Source of the DNA: Candidatus Aldehydirespiratoraceae bacterium | GTDB taxonomy: Bacteria; Actinomycetota; Acidimicrobiia; Acidimicrobiales; Aldehydirespiratoraceae | Direction of reading: 5' to 3' | NCBI GenBank assembly: GCA_965198365.1 | Contig: OZ240617.1 | Location: forward strand, 195,938-259,937 | Length of the DNA: 64,000 bases | Part shown: one piece after another, positions 18,777 through 52,282 of the stretch | Layout of the letters: every line of letters starts with the position of its first letter | Numbering within the stretch: position 1 is the stretch's first letter | Made by a program: the position numbers and the translations under genes | The notes under the pieces: generated by a model | What the model was told of the DNA's origin: nothing | Databases searched by the model: none | Seen by the model: the letters and a program-made list of their open reading frames with translations, nothing else

Positions 18777-20489
18777 GTGAAAGAAACCCCCACCGGTTCG
18801 ACCAGCAACTCGGGAACCGACTTCATACGGGAGATGCTCACCAGAGACGCCGACGACGGACCCTACAGAGGGCGCGTCCAGACCCGCTTCCCTCCAGAAC
18901 CCAACGGGTACCTGCACATCGGACACGCCAAATCGATCTCCCTCAACTTCGGTGTCGCTGAAGAGTTCGACGGTGTGTGCCGTTTGAGGTTCGACGACAC
19001 CAACCCGGAGACCGAGGACGCCAGCTTCATCGACGCGATCCGCCAAGACGTGGCGTGGCTGGGGTTCGAACCCGGCGAGTCTGCCTATGCGTCGGACTAT
19101 TTCGCACAGCTGGCCGCATGGGCCGAACAACTCATCCGCGACGGACTTGCCTACGTCGACGACCAGGACGCCGAGACGATCTCGGCAAACAGGGGCGGAT
19201 TCACCACGCCAGGTGTCAACAGCCCCAATCGGGACCGGACCGTTGAGGAAAACCTTGACCTCTTCGCCCGAATGCGCGCCGGCGAGTTCGCCGACGGCGA
19301 GAAAGTGCTGAGAGCCAAGATCGACATGGCCCACGACAACATGGCCATGCGGGACCCGGTCATGTACCGCATCCGCAACGCCCACCACTTCCGCACCGGC
19401 GACGAATGGAAGATCTATCCGACCTATGACTGGGCGCATGGGCAGAGCGATGCGGTTGAAGGAACGACGCATTCGCTGTGCACGCTCGAGTTCGACACGC
19501 ATCGGCCGTTGTACGACTGGTTCATCGAACACCTCGGGCTTGGCAACGACCATCCCCGCCAGACGGAGTTCGCCCGACTCAACCTCACCCACACCGTGAT
19601 GTCGAAACGCAAACTGTTGGAACTGGTTCGCGACGGTCATGTCGACGGCTGGGACGATCCCCGCATGCCCACGCTGCGGGGCCTGCGCCGACGGGGCTAC
19701 CCGCCCGAAGCGATCCGTGCGTTCTGTGCGCACATCGGTGTAGCCCGGGTCAACGGCACCCACGAGATAGAGCTGCTCGAATCGTTCGTGCGAACCCATC
19801 ACAACCGGCACGCCCTGCGGCGGATGGCCGTGCTCGATCCGGTCGAGTTGGTGATCGACAACTGGCCGGGGGGCTTGATCGATCAGCGTCCGGCTGTCAA
19901 CAATCCCGAAGACGAATCGGCCGGTACCCGCATGGTGCCGTTCAGCGGCAGATTATGGATCGAGCGCGGCGACTTCATGGTCGACCCGCCCAAGAAGTTC
20001 TTCAGGCTCGCGCCCGGTCGCGAGGTACGCCTGCGTGCGGGATACCTCATCACCTGCACCGATGTTGAGACCGACGCCGACGGTGAGGTGGTGCGTATTC
20101 ACTGCAGCTACGACCCTGAAACCGCTGGTGGGCAGGCTCCCGATGGCCGCAAGGTGAAAGCCACGATCCACTGGGTGTCGGCTGACCACGCGCTCGACGG
20201 CACGGTCATGCTCTATGACCGGCTCTTCACCGACCCCTTTCCCGGCGCCGACGGCGCCGACCCACTCGCTTCGCTGAACCCCACCTCGCGTGAAGTGCGC
20301 ACCGGCTGCAAACTCGAACCTGCCCTCGCCGACACCCCAGCAGGCCAGGTGGTGCAGTTCGAACGGCTCGGGTATTTTGCCCACGACCAGCAAGACCCGC
20401 TGACCTTCCACCGCACCGTCGGTCTGCGCGACGAATGGGCCAACCTGCAGAAGCGCCAAGCCCAACAAAGTCGGACTCGACGGCGCTGA
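18777..20489 (+). CDS. glnS: glutamine--tRNA ligase
   Basis: Class I signatures PEPNGYLHIGHAKS (HIGH) and VMSKRKL (KMSKS). 570 aa with a GlnRS-type C-terminal anticodon-binding region. Confidence 0.85.
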   Translation: MKETPTGSTSNSGTDFIREMLTRDADDGPYRGRVQTRFPPEPNGYLHIGHAKSISLNFGVAEEFDGVCRLRFDDTNPETEDASFIDAIRQDVAWLGFEPGESAYASDYFAQLAAWAEQLIRDGLAYVDDQDAETISANRGGFTTPGVNSPNRDRTVEENLDLFARMRAGEFADGEKVLRAKIDMAHDNMAMRDPVMYRIRNAHHFRTGDEWKIYPTYDWAHGQSDAVEGTTHSLCTLEFDTHRPLYDWFIEHLGLGNDHPRQTEFARLNLTHTVMSKRKLLELVRDGHVDGWDDPRMPTLRGLRRRGYPPEAIRAFCAHIGVARVNGTHEIELLESFVRTHHNRHALRRMAVLDPVELVIDNWPGGLIDQRPAVNNPEDESAGTRMVPFSGRLWIERGDFMVDPPKKFFRLAPGREVRLRAGYLITCTDVETDADGEVVRIHCSYDPETAGGQAPDGRKVKATIHWVSADHALDGTVMLYDRLFTDPFPGADGADPLASLNPTSREVRTGCKLEPALADTPAGQVVQFERLGYFAHDQQDPLTFHRTVGLRDEWANLQKRQAQQSRTRRR

Positions 20490-39851: not shown

Positions 39852-40090
39852 GGACCTCAATCAGGGGCGCTCGACGGTGTTGACGACACCACGTGCTGGA
39901 CCGCTTCCACCACCGCTCGGCCGCGGCCGCGTCGAACAGGTCCGGTGCCACCCCCCGACCGTGCGTGCTCGATCTGTGACCGGGCTTCGCTTCCTGGTCT
40001 GCTCCCTGGCCGTGCATACGAACCAGACCCTGAGGGTCAAGGCCACCGAGCATCTGCCCGGTCTCGTAGAGGTCGCAGAACCGTTGCGAG

Positions 40091-41257
40091 TCAGCCGGTT
40101 CCGTTGTTGTACCAGCCGCCGCCGATGAGGGTGCCGTTCACGTCGATGACCCACATGCGCATTGTCTCGGGGCCTGCGGCTGTGGCGGGGTTGTCCTCCG
40201 CGGTGATCCAGACACCGTCGGCGGTGGCGTTGCGCACTGCCGGCCCCAGCAGGTCCTCGACGTCGGTTCCGATGAGTGCGGGATCGAAGTGGGTGAGGAT
40301 CTCGCCGTCGGGGGCGGCGATGAACCCGGTGAAGTACCCGTCGAGGGTGTCGGTGCTGTTGTAGTACTCCACCGTCGGGATGAGGCCCGTGGAGATGCCC
40401 TGGGGGTCGTTGTAGAACTCCAGGATCGCTTCGAGGCCGCCTGTGCGGAAATGCTCGGCCGACTCCGAGATGAGCTGCGGCACGAACTGCTCGGTGTTGA
40501 TGTACCAGCCCGACGCGAACAGCAGCCCGTCATGGCGCACGACCCAGGCGTTCTTCAACTCGAACGCGCCCTCGTCGCCGAGAGTCCCGCCAGCGGGGTT
40601 CACATACACATAGGGCACCCAGCGGCCCGCCTCTGTGGCCGCCAGCATCTCAGGACCGAACCTGTAGCCGTTGGCGTCGGTGCCCACCCAGCCCTTGACG
40701 TCGAGGCCCCGCCGGTCGGGGTCGTAGTGGCCGATGACCTGGTCGTTCTCGTCGATGATGAACACGTACCACTGCCCGTCGATGCTCTCGGGGCGGTTGT
40801 AGTAGGCGACGGTGGCGTCGAGGCCCAAGGTCTCGTAGCGGCTGATGGCGCTGTCCACGAAGAACTTGGTGTACTCCGCGGGAGCGGACCTCGGCGGGAT
40901 CGACACCACCGCACCGCGCGCTATCCGCTCCGCCTCCTCAGCGGTGAGTCCCGACCCCTCGGCGGCCGCCAGCGCCGCCTCGATGACCTCCTCCACCTCG
41001 GCGCGGGACAGTCCCGTGTCGGGTTGGGGCAGCGCCGCCAGCGCCGCCTCGATGGCCTGTTCCGCCTCGGCGGCGGTGATCCCGGCCACCGGCTGCGGTG
41101 GTGCGGGAACAGCCTCCAACTCGGCGCGCACCATCTCTGCGACCTCGGGGCGGGACAACCCCGCTTCCCCGTCCCCGCCGCCGCATGCCACGGCCGCCAG
41201 GGGGACGAGGCAGGCCAGCGCCGCCAGGGTCCGCCGGATCGACTTCCGGTTCGTCAT
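40091..41257 (-). CDS. lipoprotein with two Cache/PAS-like extracytoplasmic modules
   Basis: Lipobox AAVAC. A helical Ala/Glu-rich linker with repeated LSRAEVEE/LSRPEVAE segments. Two YYN...DG.(W/Y).(V/T)(F/G)FI modules. Confidence 0.55.
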   Translation of the reverse strand: MTNRKSIRRTLAALACLVPLAAVACGGGDGEAGLSRPEVAEMVRAELEAVPAPPQPVAGITAAEAEQAIEAALAALPQPDTGLSRAEVEEVIEAALAAAEGSGLTAEEAERIARGAVVSIPPRSAPAEYTKFFVDSAISRYETLGLDATVAYYNRPESIDGQWYVFIIDENDQVIGHYDPDRRGLDVKGWVGTDANGYRFGPEMLAATEAGRWVPYVYVNPAGGTLGDEGAFELKNAWVVRHDGLLFASGWYINTEQFVPQLISESAEHFRTGGLEAILEFYNDPQGISTGLIPTVEYYNSTDTLDGYFTGFIAAPDGEILTHFDPALIGTDVEDLLGPAVRNATADGVWITAEDNPATAAGPETMRMWVIDVNGTLIGGGWYNNGTG

Positions 41258-41442
41258 GATCTTGATTCCTCCTGCTCAGATTTCGCGAGCCCGCCGATCG
41301 GGCTCGACCCACCGACTCGGGTCACACGGGACGGGACGCCGTGGGGCGTCTCGACGGGCTGTCGCGGGGCGTCAGCGACCATCGGGCACACCCGACGCCG
41401 CGAAGCCGTGGGAGCCGTGTCGGGATTCTCTTCGGCGGTCTC

Positions 41443-43041
41443 TCATAGGCCGACTATTTGACGCCAGTCAGCCCAGTCACAGTTCTGGGTTCGGTGCTCG
41501 ACGTCGATGGTGTATCCGTCCTCCCATCCTGAGTCTCCGGACTTCGGTATGTAGTTGTGGCCGTCGAGCAGGGTGACCTTGTAGTACCTGGCACGCCATT
41601 GCGCGCCGCACACGTTGTCCCGGGTCGTCGAGATGGAGAGTCCCCCGTTGTAATCCCTGTGCCCGAAGAACGTTGTCCCGGTGGTGGTCTCCGACACGAC
41701 CATCCCGCGTCCGTCGGCCTTGTCGGGGCCGCCGCCGAAGTAGTCGTACACGTCGAGTCTGTAGTTCACGGTCAAACCCGGGGGGTAGGACCCGGCGTGG
41801 TGGCGGGCAAGCCCGAATAGCAGGCCTTGTCCCTCGTCTGCGACCGCGGCGGCGTCGCTGATGCTGATCTCGATAGTCTGGTTCGTGGTCGAGAATTGCT
41901 TCGTCGCTGAGGTGACGGAGAAGTCGGGCGTCTCGTTGGTGGCTGTCCGGTTGTCGCCGGTCAGCGCGAACTGGATCTCGTAGGTCGTGCCGGCGGTCAG
42001 GCCGGTCAAGGCGACGGTGTGGCGGCTAGCAAACGTGAAGCGTTCGGAGGTGACCTCGCCGCCGCCGGTCAGGTTCGTGTACTTCGGGCTGGACCCCGTC
42101 GTCCAGGGGCTGTCGCCGACGGGCTGGTAGCGCCAGTGGAGTCTGGTCCTCGGTGTGGCCTCCCAGATGTTCAGGCTCACCTTCGCCTCGTTCATGAGGA
42201 CGCTGGAAGGGAAGATTCCCGTGATCACCCCGACTGGCTCGTCGTCCACCACGGTCACATCCACGCTGATGGCCTCCCCGTCGAAGCCGCCGCCGGTGGC
42301 GATGAAGTCGAGCGCCACCTTGTCGTTGTTCGCGTCCGCGTCCTGCGCGGCGCTGATCGAGCCGTTCTGGTGCGTCAACCAGTTCTCCGGCGTGAACACG
42401 AACCTTTCGGTGAAGTTGGACACGTCGGTGCCCGCGTCGCCGCTGACCGTCACCGTCACGTTCCCCGTCGGTTTCCCCGCGAACCCCCGGTCGGTGATTA
42501 TCGGTTTCAGCCTCACGCTGTATGACAGCGTCCCGCCCTCGTCCACCTTCATCGGATCCGGAATGACAAGCACACGCCCCGGGGGGTCATCTTCGACGGT
42601 CACCACATAGTTGGCGGACACCCCGCCATAGCCGCCATCGGCGGCACTGTGAATGAGCGTCACAACGTCGTCCCTCCTGTCCGCGTCGCTCGCGGCGGTG
42701 ACCGTCACCGTCTGAAACGTGTTGTAGTTCGACCTCGTGAACGTCAACGACTCTGTGCTCAAGGTCAGATCGGTGCCCTCGTGGCCGCTGATCGTCACCG
42801 TCACGTCCGCGGTCGGCTGCGTCGCCAGCTTCACCATGTAAGTCGCTTGGCTTTGCTCATCCATGGTCAACGCCGTCGGCGTGATTATCAGGTCGGCGGT
42901 CTGCGCCTGGGCCGGATGGCCGCCCGCGACGAGCAATGCCCCGATCAGCGTCGGCAGGACCGCCAGGGCGACGAACCGGCGGCGGACGCGTCCGCGCGTG
43001 GGACGGACGGGGATTCCAGGGGCGGATCCGGTAGTCGTCAT
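41443..43041 (-). CDS. secreted multi-beta-sandwich surface protein (Tat-type signal)
   Basis: Start taken at ATG 43041, preceded by GAGGAAG (43048-43054). Twin-arginine signal RGRVRRRFVALAV...AQA. Contains repeated VTVT(I/V)SG..GTD modules and an FN3-like module. Confidence 0.7.
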   Translation of the reverse strand: MTTTGSAPGIPVRPTRGRVRRRFVALAVLPTLIGALLVAGGHPAQAQTADLIITPTALTMDEQSQATYMVKLATQPTADVTVTISGHEGTDLTLSTESLTFTRSNYNTFQTVTVTAASDADRRDDVVTLIHSAADGGYGGVSANYVVTVEDDPPGRVLVIPDPMKVDEGGTLSYSVRLKPIITDRGFAGKPTGNVTVTVSGDAGTDVSNFTERFVFTPENWLTHQNGSISAAQDADANNDKVALDFIATGGGFDGEAISVDVTVVDDEPVGVITGIFPSSVLMNEAKVSLNIWEATPRTRLHWRYQPVGDSPWTTGSSPKYTNLTGGGEVTSERFTFASRHTVALTGLTAGTTYEIQFALTGDNRTATNETPDFSVTSATKQFSTTNQTIEISISDAAAVADEGQGLLFGLARHHAGSYPPGLTVNYRLDVYDYFGGGPDKADGRGMVVSETTTGTTFFGHRDYNGGLSISTTRDNVCGAQWRARYYKVTLLDGHNYIPKSGDSGWEDGYTIDVEHRTQNCDWADWRQIVGL

Positions 43042-43063
43042 GGCCGGCTTCCTCGGAATCTGC

Positions 43064-43076
43064 GGGGGGGGGGGGG
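43064..43076. repeat. homopolymer G13 (C13 on the coding strand of the 41443..43041 gene)
   Basis: Counted directly and cross-checked against the ORF-track translation APPPPQ. Lies 9 nt upstream of the RBS and 22 nt upstream of the ATG at 43041. Confidence 0.95.
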
Positions 43077-43350
43077 CAAGCCGCTTGGGGCAGGTTCTGA
43101 GGGCGGGCGTTCTCAAGGGCGGAACCGGCGCTGGTCATGGCGTGCCTCCTGGGCATCTAGAGGAAGGAAACGAACGATGCCGTCGCGGACGGCCGGGTGC
43201 GTCGGTGAAACACCGACTACAACGCACCCTATCGTATCAGACATGAAAGAAACATGGAATAGACATGAAAGAAGCATAAATCCCATACGTATAATATTCT
43301 GACGAGACGGACAGGGCAGCCTGTCCTCGATTTAGTCCGTTCTGTTTGCA

Positions 43351-44103
43351 ATGAAACTCCGTCTGCCTTCCTCACGTCTCGTTACGCGGTCGGTGCTGTT
43401 GATCGTGCTCGCCGGCGCCACTGCGTTCTTCCGTCTCGGCCTGACCGATGCCTCCGACAGCGTCACGGTGAGCCATGACGGGTTTCAGCTGACGTGTCCC
43501 GGGCTGATCGAGGAGGGCTCGACCCTGACGTGCATGCTCACGAACACCGCGGCCACCGAGGCGGACTGGCCGGTCGTCGGGATCCTGCACCGGTCGGACG
43601 ACTCGAACAGGGCGCTGGTCCGGGGCTCGCCCCTCGATGTCGAGTTGAGCGCTCCCACTCCCGAAGCCACTATCGAGGGTGGCGTGTGGTGGATCGGTCC
43701 CGACCTTGTCGGCTACTCGTTCTTCGACTGGTCGGGAACGGCGGCCGCGGCACCCGGCGCGACCACGACCACATCCGGCGCGACCACGACCACAACCGGC
43801 GCGACCACGACCACAACCGGCGGGGCCACGAATTCGCGCGACGTCGTCATCAGCATCGTGGATGACGACGATCATGAGAGCGAGGAGGTGTTCTACGTCT
43901 CCCTGGCGTCCGACGGCAGCAGGAACGTGGGAGTTCTGTACAACAACCGGCAGAGGGTCCGGGTCTCAGACGGCGACAGCGAGAGCAGCGACGCGTCCCT
44001 GAGCGACCTCCGCATCTTCGCCGGAGGGGGGGGGGGGGGTAGAGGAGAAGACGCTCACGTTCTCATCGACCGTTCTGTCGTACCAGGTCACGGTCGACTA
44101 TGA
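43351..44103 (+). CDS. N-terminal segment of the giant surface protein (signal/TM segment + Calx-beta-like module + start of a cadherin-like beta-sandwich domain); frame broken at the G14 tract
   Basis: N-terminal hydrophobic segment SVLLIVLAGATAFF. The module TCPGLIEEGSTLTCMLTNT...FDWSG...VFYVSLAS is repeated in the next ORF. The ORF runs through G14 and then stops 64 nt later. Confidence 0.75.
   Translation: MKLRLPSSRLVTRSVLLIVLAGATAFFRLGLTDASDSVTVSHDGFQLTCPGLIEEGSTLTCMLTNTAATEADWPVVGILHRSDDSNRALVRGSPLDVELSAPTPEATIEGGVWWIGPDLVGYSFFDWSGTAAAAPGATTTTSGATTTTTGATTTTTGGATNSRDVVISIVDDDDHESEEVFYVSLASDGSRNVGVLYNNRQRVRVSDGDSESSDASLSDLRIFAGGGGGGRGEDAHVLIDRSVVPGHGRL
44026..44039. repeat. homopolymer G14 at the junction of ORFs 43351..44103 and 44114..52282
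   Basis: Counted directly and checked against the translation FAGGGGGGR. The downstream frame is open from 44003, so G13 (or G16) would fuse both ORFs. Confidence 0.95.
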
Positions 44104-44113
44104 CGTCACAGAG

Positions 44114-52278
<8,165 letters not shown>

Positions 52279-52282
<4 letters not shown>

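Follow-up and report, generated by a model that had tools for sequence, protein, structure and literature searches.

Contingency loci are textbook biology in a handful of cultivable pathogens. Intragenic poly-G/C tracts are found in surface-structure genes of Campylobacter jejuni and Helicobacter pylori, several per genome, and give populations of mixed tract length. In Neisseria, pilC carries a poly-G tract in its signal-peptide coding region and the opa genes carry CTCTT repeats there, and homopolymers of promoters or leaders act on transcription in Bordetella fim (poly-C), Neisseria porA and opc, and Treponema pallidum tpr (poly-G). The sialidase gene nanH3 of Gardnerella piotii has a poly-C tract of 8–14 nt about 100 nt into the open reading frame (ORF), beside the signal-peptide coding region; the full protein is obtained from one frame class only, and the annotated start is frequently placed too far downstream to include the signal peptide (bioRxiv 10.1101/2020.09.16.300947). 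Here we describe a poly-C tract of 13 nt in a 64,000-nt stretch of DNA from a Candidatus Aldehydirespiratoraceae bacterium (contig OZ240617.1; the whole stretch is called the window below). According to our analysis, this tract is probably a contingency locus based on slipped-strand mispairing, of the translational type, located in the 5′ coding region of a gene for a secreted beta-sandwich protein.

A Conserved Start Codon Upstream of the Tract

The window was compared with the homologous loci L001–L006 and L087 from ENA assemblies. The elements on which the comparison depends are the following (SD, Shine-Dalgarno sequence):

43064..43076, minus strand: poly-C tract 1, C13 on the gene strand and G13 on the plus strand, the proposed hypermutable element
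43145..43150, minus strand: SD1, AGGAGG, separated from ATG1 by 6 nt, with 100% conservation across five loci and predicted pairing to an upstream GUUUCCU
43136..43138, minus strand: ATG1, the first of the two start codons, which precedes the tract by 62 nt and does not vary among the window, L006, L001, L002, and L003
43048..43054, minus strand: SD2, GAGGAAG, 9 nt downstream of the tract, conserved at the nucleotide level even where ATG2 is out of frame
43039..43041, minus strand: ATG2, the internal start, which shares the frame of the mature protein in no lineage other than that of the window and L006; embedded in ATGA, where the +2 frame stops
41443..43041, minus strand: gene for the secreted all-beta protein, 532 aa from ATG2 and 564–568 aa from ATG1 at tract lengths divisible by 3
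42904..43041, minus strand: signal peptide as read from ATG2, with n-region, RRRF (42973–42984), hydrophobic core, and AQA/QT cleavage motif, recognized by eye
42857..43138, minus strand: 93-aa ORF read out of frame from ATG1 at C13, overlapping ATG2 and the signal-peptide coding region

A poly-C tract occupies the same site in lineages that are 97%, ~81%, and ~75–79% identical to the window. Upstream of it, the alignment contains an invariant cccAGGAGGcacgccATG in the window, L006, L001, L002, and L003; the segment between ATG1 and the tract is rich in indels, while SD1 and ATG1 do not vary across these five loci. The L001 protein P0002 (562 aa; MTSTGSAPENPVGRDAQTPALRACPKRLDPPPPADSEE...RRRARRRF) and the L006 protein P0121 (566 aa; MTSAGSALENARPQNLPQAACPPPPPPPPQIPRKPAMTTTGSAPG...RRRF) both start at ATG1, which is also the annotated start of the L003 protein P0004, and the C24 tract of L006 is translated as PPPPPPPP, eight prolines preceding the RRRF signal peptide. 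Since ATG1 is the in-frame start in L001, L003, and L006, the tract is coding sequence; judged from these translations, it gives rise to a polyproline stretch that lies after ATG1 and before the twin arginines, in the n-region of the signal peptide.

The initial annotation of the window had assigned the tract to the 5′ leader or promoter, outside the protein, and the conserved AGGAGG-N6-ATG upstream of it speaks against this assignment. The leader placement is partly recovered for the C13 state: with ATG1 out of frame there, the tract is in effect part of a translated leader of ATG2. The geometry given for the downstream module, with GAGGAAG 9 nt from the tract end and an ATG at 43041, proved exact. 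A longer frame through the tract had been called implausible: this was justified for TTG-43116, which is not a real start, and mistaken for the frame that passes through the tract from ATG1.

Read from ATG1, whose use we infer from its conservation, the tract is intragenic and its length modulo 3 determines the frame. In the window lineage, computed tract lengths of 12, 15 ... 24 bring ATG1 into frame and give a preprotein of 564–568 aa. Lengths of 13, 16 ... give an ORF of 93–97 aa from ATG1 that crosses ATG2 in another frame, and lengths of 14, 17 ... give an ORF of 33–37 aa; at C14 it has 33 aa and stops on the TGA of ccATGAcg, overlapping ATG2. With C13, ATG1 of the window is out of frame, and the protein can then be obtained only from ATG2. 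The states of the five alignable loci are:

Window: C13; ATG1 out of frame; ATG2 in frame
L006: C24; ATG1 in frame; ATG2 in frame
L001: C13; ATG1 in frame; ATG2 out of frame
L002: C14; ATG1 out of frame; ATG2 absent
L003: tract lost; ATG1 in frame; ATG2 out of frame

L001 requires a tract length with a remainder of 1 on division by 3, owing to an indel of 1 nt on the downstream side of the tract (cgtCCCacg versus cgtCCacg). The protein called for L002 has no signal peptide, and since the C14 tract puts ATG1 out of frame and there is no ATG2, this allele looks like a plain OFF state.

The segment around the second start, gattccgaggaRgccRgccATGacgactaccggatccgcccc (window 43042–43063 and 43077–43135, in comparison with L001 and L003), hardly varies between lineages and resembles a diverged duplicate of the SD1–ATG1 module. 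It is nevertheless translated in different frames depending on the lineage (QIPRKPAMTTTGSAP versus ADSEEASHDDYRIRP).

Rarity of Long Homopolymers

The window has a GC content of 62%, and only two homopolymers in it exceed 7 nt: the G13 run at 43064–43076 and a G14 run at 44026–44039, located in a neighboring giant gene described below. The longest of the remaining homopolymers is 7 nt, so that the G13 run stands out in length as a contingency repeat does. The counts of G/C runs fall ~4.4-fold with each extra base, and extrapolation of this decay gives an expectation of 6.8e-4 runs of at least 13 nt per 64-kb window; therefore, two such tracts 950 nt apart are not a product of chance. In ~57 kb from seven related Acidimicrobiia loci, all runs of at least 8 nt fall in the same secreted-protein gene. 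The initial annotation had reported G13 at 43064–43076, with C13 on the coding strand, and its pairing with G14 at a separation of about 950 bp; the coordinates are exact, the run is non-random, and the distance measures 950 nt. It had also asked whether long G/C runs are scattered, and in the window they are confined to two genes.

Tract Length in Related Strains and Within One Sample

The tract measures C24 in L006, C13 in L001, C14 in L002, C10 in L005, and C13 in L087; in L003 it was lost by a short deletion, and in L004 the entire 5′ end is lost. Length differences are found inside each lineage: C13 in the window and C24 in L006, at 96.7% nucleotide identity; C13 in L001 and C14 in L002; C10 in L005 and C13 in L087. 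An invariant length among relatives had been named beforehand as a reason to abandon a functional reading, and the range from C10 to C24, together with the loss in L003, speaks for variability. Because tract length varies among relatives, it very probably modulates expression. The suggestion of such modulation in the initial annotation is thus sustained as to variable length, and RNA of related strains speaks against the promoter-spacer route (see below).

A distant homologue, P0086 (L088 1501–1545, 33% identity, from a different assembly), has the order ATG, 24 nt, G11, cagc, ATG, and signal peptide, which hints that the layout with a homopolymer before the signal peptide recurs. In the L004/L005/L087 lineage, the same gene contains further short G/C runs: a G8 in L005 (4020–4027), which shifts the frame at a position occupied by G7 in L004, and a C8 in L087 (4549–4556), which keeps the frame. 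L004 lacks the 5′ end, and L005 and L087 have a broken one. These short G/C runs and broken 5′ ends suggest recurrent inactivation in this lineage. A ten-proline run in P0026 was considered as a further homopolymer and ruled out, as it is encoded by mixed CCN codons.

Tract 1 occurs at the corresponding site of four independent ENA assemblies, and was also seen in unitigs of runs X1–X3 and in one metatranscriptome contig. The lengths within samples were taken from Logan unitigs with flanks identical to the window. Sample S1 contained tract-1 unitigs with G13 (depth 15), G15 (depth 10), and G16 (depth 8); from the same sample, run X1 contained words of the flank plus at least 16 G (depth 19), and run X2 a G14 unitig (depth 53). 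For tract 2, the G14 run of the window, one exact-flank contig was found in runs X1 and X2, with G20. Simple sequencing stutter should affect tract 2 at least equally, since it is longer, and it nevertheless appears as a single G20 contig, a rough internal control for tract 1. The differences between assemblies, 13 versus 24 for tract 1 and 14 versus 7 versus 20 for tract 2, are robust and too large for homopolymer miscalls.

Structural variants of the 5′ region (window 42990–43111) coexist in runs X1, X2, and X4, within one sponge sample. They include a 42-nt deletion from 43068 to 43111, which removes most of the tract, is L003-like, and was seen in RNA, and a 118-nt replacement from 42990 to 43109. 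Their coexistence indicates that several lineages of the secreted-protein gene occur in one host.

Transcription and the 5′ Leader

Zero-mismatch contigs from sponge metatranscriptomes cover parts of the body of the secreted-protein gene of the window strain. An RNA contig of an L003-like, tract-less strain extends from 42781 to 43151, beyond ATG1 into SD1, and one of an L005-like strain crosses a G10 tract and 147 nt upstream of it; no RNA contig over 43172–43315 was found among the metatranscriptome contigs. In these related strains the tract site lies inside the mRNA, which argues against a promoter spacer. On this indirect evidence, it is located neither between −35 and −10 elements nor upstream of the transcription start. 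Two further elements lie upstream:

43226..43231, minus strand: candidate −10 hexamer TAGGGT, aligned with TGcTAGAGT of L001–L003, located ~90 nt before ATG1 and ~150 nt before the tract, proposed from the alignment
43165..43217, minus strand: conserved 5′ leader, with two hairpins, an anti-SD1 segment, and one compensatory pair

The candidate hexamer would set the transcription start ~80 nt before ATG1 and ~150 nt before the tract. A scan for consensus sigma-70 promoters and terminators found nothing, which carries little weight for an actinobacterium, and no Rfam family matched in 42800–43500. The leader hairpin GUCGGUG-UUU-CACCGAC shows a compensatory change relative to L001–L003, which have two or three upstream repeats of the hairpin motif. 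When the leader was folded with C5–C24, the tract was predicted to form a loop and SD2 to be mostly paired at all lengths, with an unpaired fraction of 0.11–0.18 for C12–C24. Tuning through leader structure is not supported, because the predicted accessibility of SD2 barely shifts with tract length, and a role as a G-quadruplex or i-motif has no support beyond base composition.

The divergent intergenic region is relatively AT-rich. It contains a direct repeat, GACATGAAAGAA, at 43240–43251 and 43262–43273, 22 nt apart, and a perfect TATAAT at 43290–43295, 55 nt upstream of the ATG of the giant gene; the GACATGAAAGAA repeats and the TATAAT may be regulator sites common to both promoters.

Proposed Mechanism and Alternative Explanations

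Based on these results, we propose that translation would normally begin at ATG1 (43138), served by its strong AGGAGG site, and that the ribosome would read the poly-C as polyproline and then the RRRF signal peptide. Replication slippage would alter the tract length, and the length modulo 3 would set the frame. The C13 of the window would then represent an "ATG1-off" state, in which, in the window lineage, ATG2 with GAGGAAG could still yield a short-form or low-level product; in L001 and L002, which lack an in-frame ATG2, the tract would act as a plain ON/OFF switch. The results establish the anatomy of the locus, the conserved ATG1 and SD1, the frame arithmetic, the length differences between strains, and transcription across the tract site in related strains; the use of ATG1, a reversible change of length, an effect at the protein level, and a selective benefit are what we infer.

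Several observations weigh against this proposal. ATG1 is out of frame in two of the three close strains (the window and that of P0001), both with an in-frame ATG2, and ATG2 might be the working start in the window lineage. The RNA that crosses the tract site stems from related strains. In the L004/L005/L087 lineage the 5′ end is broken at any tract length, and the variation there may be a sign of gene decay and not of adaptive switching. The dominant length of tract 1 differs between two runs of one sample, and a mixture at the unitig level is not cleanly separable from slippage in the library or in sequencing; as the runs disagree, and as unitig construction may hide minor variants, length heterogeneity of tract 1 within the population is likely, though unproven. 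Finally, the assemblies look like HiFi/metaMDBG products, in which one-base errors in long homopolymers are plausible, so that states of 13 versus 14 carry little weight by themselves.

A reading that we consider unlikely, in line with the initial annotation, is that ATG2 (43041) is the real start in the window lineage and that the tract, in an untranslated leader or promoter, tunes transcription or initiation at ATG2 through promoter spacing, leader structure, or the distance to SD2. It would account for an ATG2 that has a usable GAGGAAG and the correct frame in all of the window, P0001, and L006, for its choice by gene callers in two of the three close strains, and for the conservation of the SD2–ATG2 segment at the nucleotide level even when it is read in another frame. 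It conflicts with the invariance of SD1 and ATG1, with ATG1 being the sole productive start in L001, L002, and L003, and with the in-frame reading through C24 in L006; moreover, the related-strain RNA contigs contain the tract site and upstream sequence, the best −10 candidate lies far upstream of the tract, and the predicted accessibility of SD2 is nearly constant over the lengths folded. It seems to us quite unlikely that the tract varies neutrally, simply because homopolymers slip, as a mutational hotspot of a gene that is dispensable and in decay, with out-of-frame states as steps to pseudogenes and no selected, reversible switching. The 5′ end of L004/L005/L087 is indeed broken independently of the tract, with the loss of the 5′ end in L004, the tract was lost in L003, and its flanks are indel-rich. 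Yet an uninterrupted homopolymer of 10–24 nt has been kept at one site across 75–81% identity, where interruption or shortening would be expected without selection; the window strain has an intact gene body, to which RNA contigs match with zero mismatches; and the tract of the adjoining giant gene has both in-frame and out-of-frame alleles.

Homopolymers of at least 9 nt provoke slippage of bacterial RNA polymerase, and stuttering of the polymerase on a run of 13–24 nt could give mixed mRNA lengths and some in-frame product from every DNA allele, so that the tract would act as a dimmer at the RNA level instead of a heritable DNA switch. Such transcriptional slippage or recoding would suit a gene that is retained and transcribed while out-of-frame DNA alleles are common. 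As the main mechanism we find it very improbable, since the sole tract-spanning RNA contig has G10, equal to the DNA of that lineage, and the large differences in DNA length between strains are left unaccounted for; it is compatible with the contingency-tract explanation and does not exclude it. It is barely credible that the tract is a sequencing or assembly artefact, for instance one of the poly-G type or a miscalled homopolymer. All platforms are prone to errors in long homopolymers, and tract 2 was assembled as G14 in the window versus G20 in runs X1 and X2; against this, tract 1 occurs at the same gene position in at least five independent assemblies, DNA unitigs, and an RNA contig, it has proper homologous sequence on both flanks, and the long runs are confined to two genes in the window and to the one gene in the related loci.

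The contingency-tract explanation can be extended to a more elaborate scheme, which is tentative and in its full form somewhat unlikely. Here, the tract would be the selector of a conserved translational switch with two starts and three frames, lying in the loop of a predicted stem between the two SD–ATG modules. Frame 0 would give the long polyproline preprotein, with slow, EF-P-dependent translation; the +1 frame would give the 93-aa ORF occluding ATG2; and the +2 frame would give the 33-aa ORF ending in ATGA, where termination could couple to reinitiation and yield the short form. On this scheme, 5′ selectors of this kind would have emerged more than once among the secreted adhesin-like genes of sponge symbionts, with the G11 of L088 and the tract of the giant gene as examples, and they would provide uncultivated symbionts with a stochastic surface repertoire against host phagocytosis or phage.

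The Secreted Protein and Its Host

The signal peptide of the secreted protein contains VRRRFVALAV followed by a hydrophobic core and AQA-Q, as interpreted by eye from the translation. The initial annotation had described a secreted protein with a twin-arginine translocation (Tat) signal; this detail was not confirmed, as the RRRF signal peptide is Tat-like by eye only and no match to a Tat-signal model (motif S/T-R-R-x-F-L-K, then a hydrophobic region) was reported for the protein among Pfam and NCBIfam models. An AlphaFold model, built from a seven-sequence alignment, has a mean pLDDT (predicted local distance difference test score) of 55.9 and is confident for two N-terminal beta-sandwich domains only. 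A sequence search of the PDB with the protein gave no significant match, and no relative was found when GTDB genomes were scanned with the protein or JGI metagenomes with its alignment. Exact look-ups of the proteins of the window and of P0001 likewise returned no record. Almost all relatives come from ENA metagenome contigs, and the few named matches include sponge-associated bacteria.

The GlnRS of the window (18777–20489) is 91% identical to that of the metagenome-assembled genome Acidimicrobiaceae bacterium COS4_bin_1, and its next matches belong to Acidimicrobiales; WS/DGAT and luciferase-like genes in the window are consistent with an actinobacterium. Sponge metatranscriptomes are among the runs that contain the window sequence.

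The Giant Neighboring Gene and the Second Tract

The second tract belongs to the divergently oriented neighbor of the secreted-protein gene:

43351..52282, plus strand: giant surface-protein gene, ~2976 aa in frame, with fn3, cadherin-like, Spondin_N, sulfatase, Big_9, and SLH domains
44026..44039, plus strand: tract 2, G14, at codon 226 of the giant gene, breaking the frame as assembled

The G14 run divides the gene into the ORFs 43351..44103 and 44114..52282, and computed tract lengths of 7, 10, 13, 16, and 19 give a protein of 2974–2978 aa. L006 has G7 and a continuous ORF, and the G20 of runs X1 and X2 breaks the frame in the same way as G14. Measured from ATG1 and from the start codon of the giant gene, respectively, the two genes of the window are off phase and those of L006 in phase, a pattern that is not interpretable from two genomes. 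The two tracts had been thought to flank one shared divergent control region. Each lies inside the coding sequence of its own gene, and no shared control region is flanked by them in a regulatory sense.

The giant gene also contains a 21-nt in-frame tandem repeat, ccggcgcgaccacgaccacaa, in three copies at 43757–43820 (plus strand), encoding GATTTT(S/T). L006 has one copy, and a contig of run X3 skips 42 nt there, a frame-preserving length polymorphism. The giant gene is not beside the secreted-protein gene in L001–L003. The GC content is 65–72% over both tract-bearing genes (window 40000–52000) versus 55–61% downstream, at 52–64 kb, so the surface-protein gene block is compositionally distinct in the window.

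Significance and Comparison with Known Systems

Literature searches returned no report of homopolymer phase variation or contingency loci in sponge symbionts or Acidimicrobiia. The mechanism itself is already known; the setting, a sponge-associated Acidimicrobiia bacterium, is new, and the two-start layout is unusual. If our explanation is true, uncultivated, host-restricted symbionts vary adhesin-like and "eukaryote-like" surface proteins (cadherin, fn3, sulfatase) stochastically, which would bear on the escape of symbionts from phagocytosis by sponge cells or from phage attack. There are also consequences for annotation: gene callers start the secreted-protein gene at ATG2 or omit its signal peptide, and, because of these tracts, they divide the giant gene into two. 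In symbiont assemblies, genes divided in this way and "pseudogenes" may instead be off-phase alleles.

With Gardnerella nanH3 the locus shares an actinobacterial host, an extracellular protein, a poly-C tract near the signal peptide, and the same annotation artefacts. In nanH3 the tract follows the signal peptide, whereas here it precedes the twin arginines and the hydrophobic core, inside the n-region. A further difference is the second SD–ATG module, which follows the tract after 23 nt and is in frame in one lineage; another is the host, an uncultivated sponge symbiont with putative switching. As in Neisseria pilC and opa, the frame of a surface-protein gene would be set by slipped-strand mispairing at a repeat that lies where the signal peptide is encoded; those genes belong to a pathogen of another phylum and have no second in-frame start, whereas the tract lengths here reach 24. 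The contingency genes of Campylobacter and Helicobacter likewise have intragenic G/C homopolymers in surface genes and more than one tract, but their genomes are AT-rich, so that G/C tracts are conspicuous there on other grounds, with tracts usually of 8–13 nt, in contrast to a genome of 62–70% GC here. Bordetella fim, Neisseria porA and opc, and Treponema tpr also have a G/C homopolymer near the 5′ end of a surface-protein gene. There the homopolymer lies between or upstream of promoter elements, whereas the tract described here lies downstream of a conserved start codon, at a site that is transcribed in related strains.

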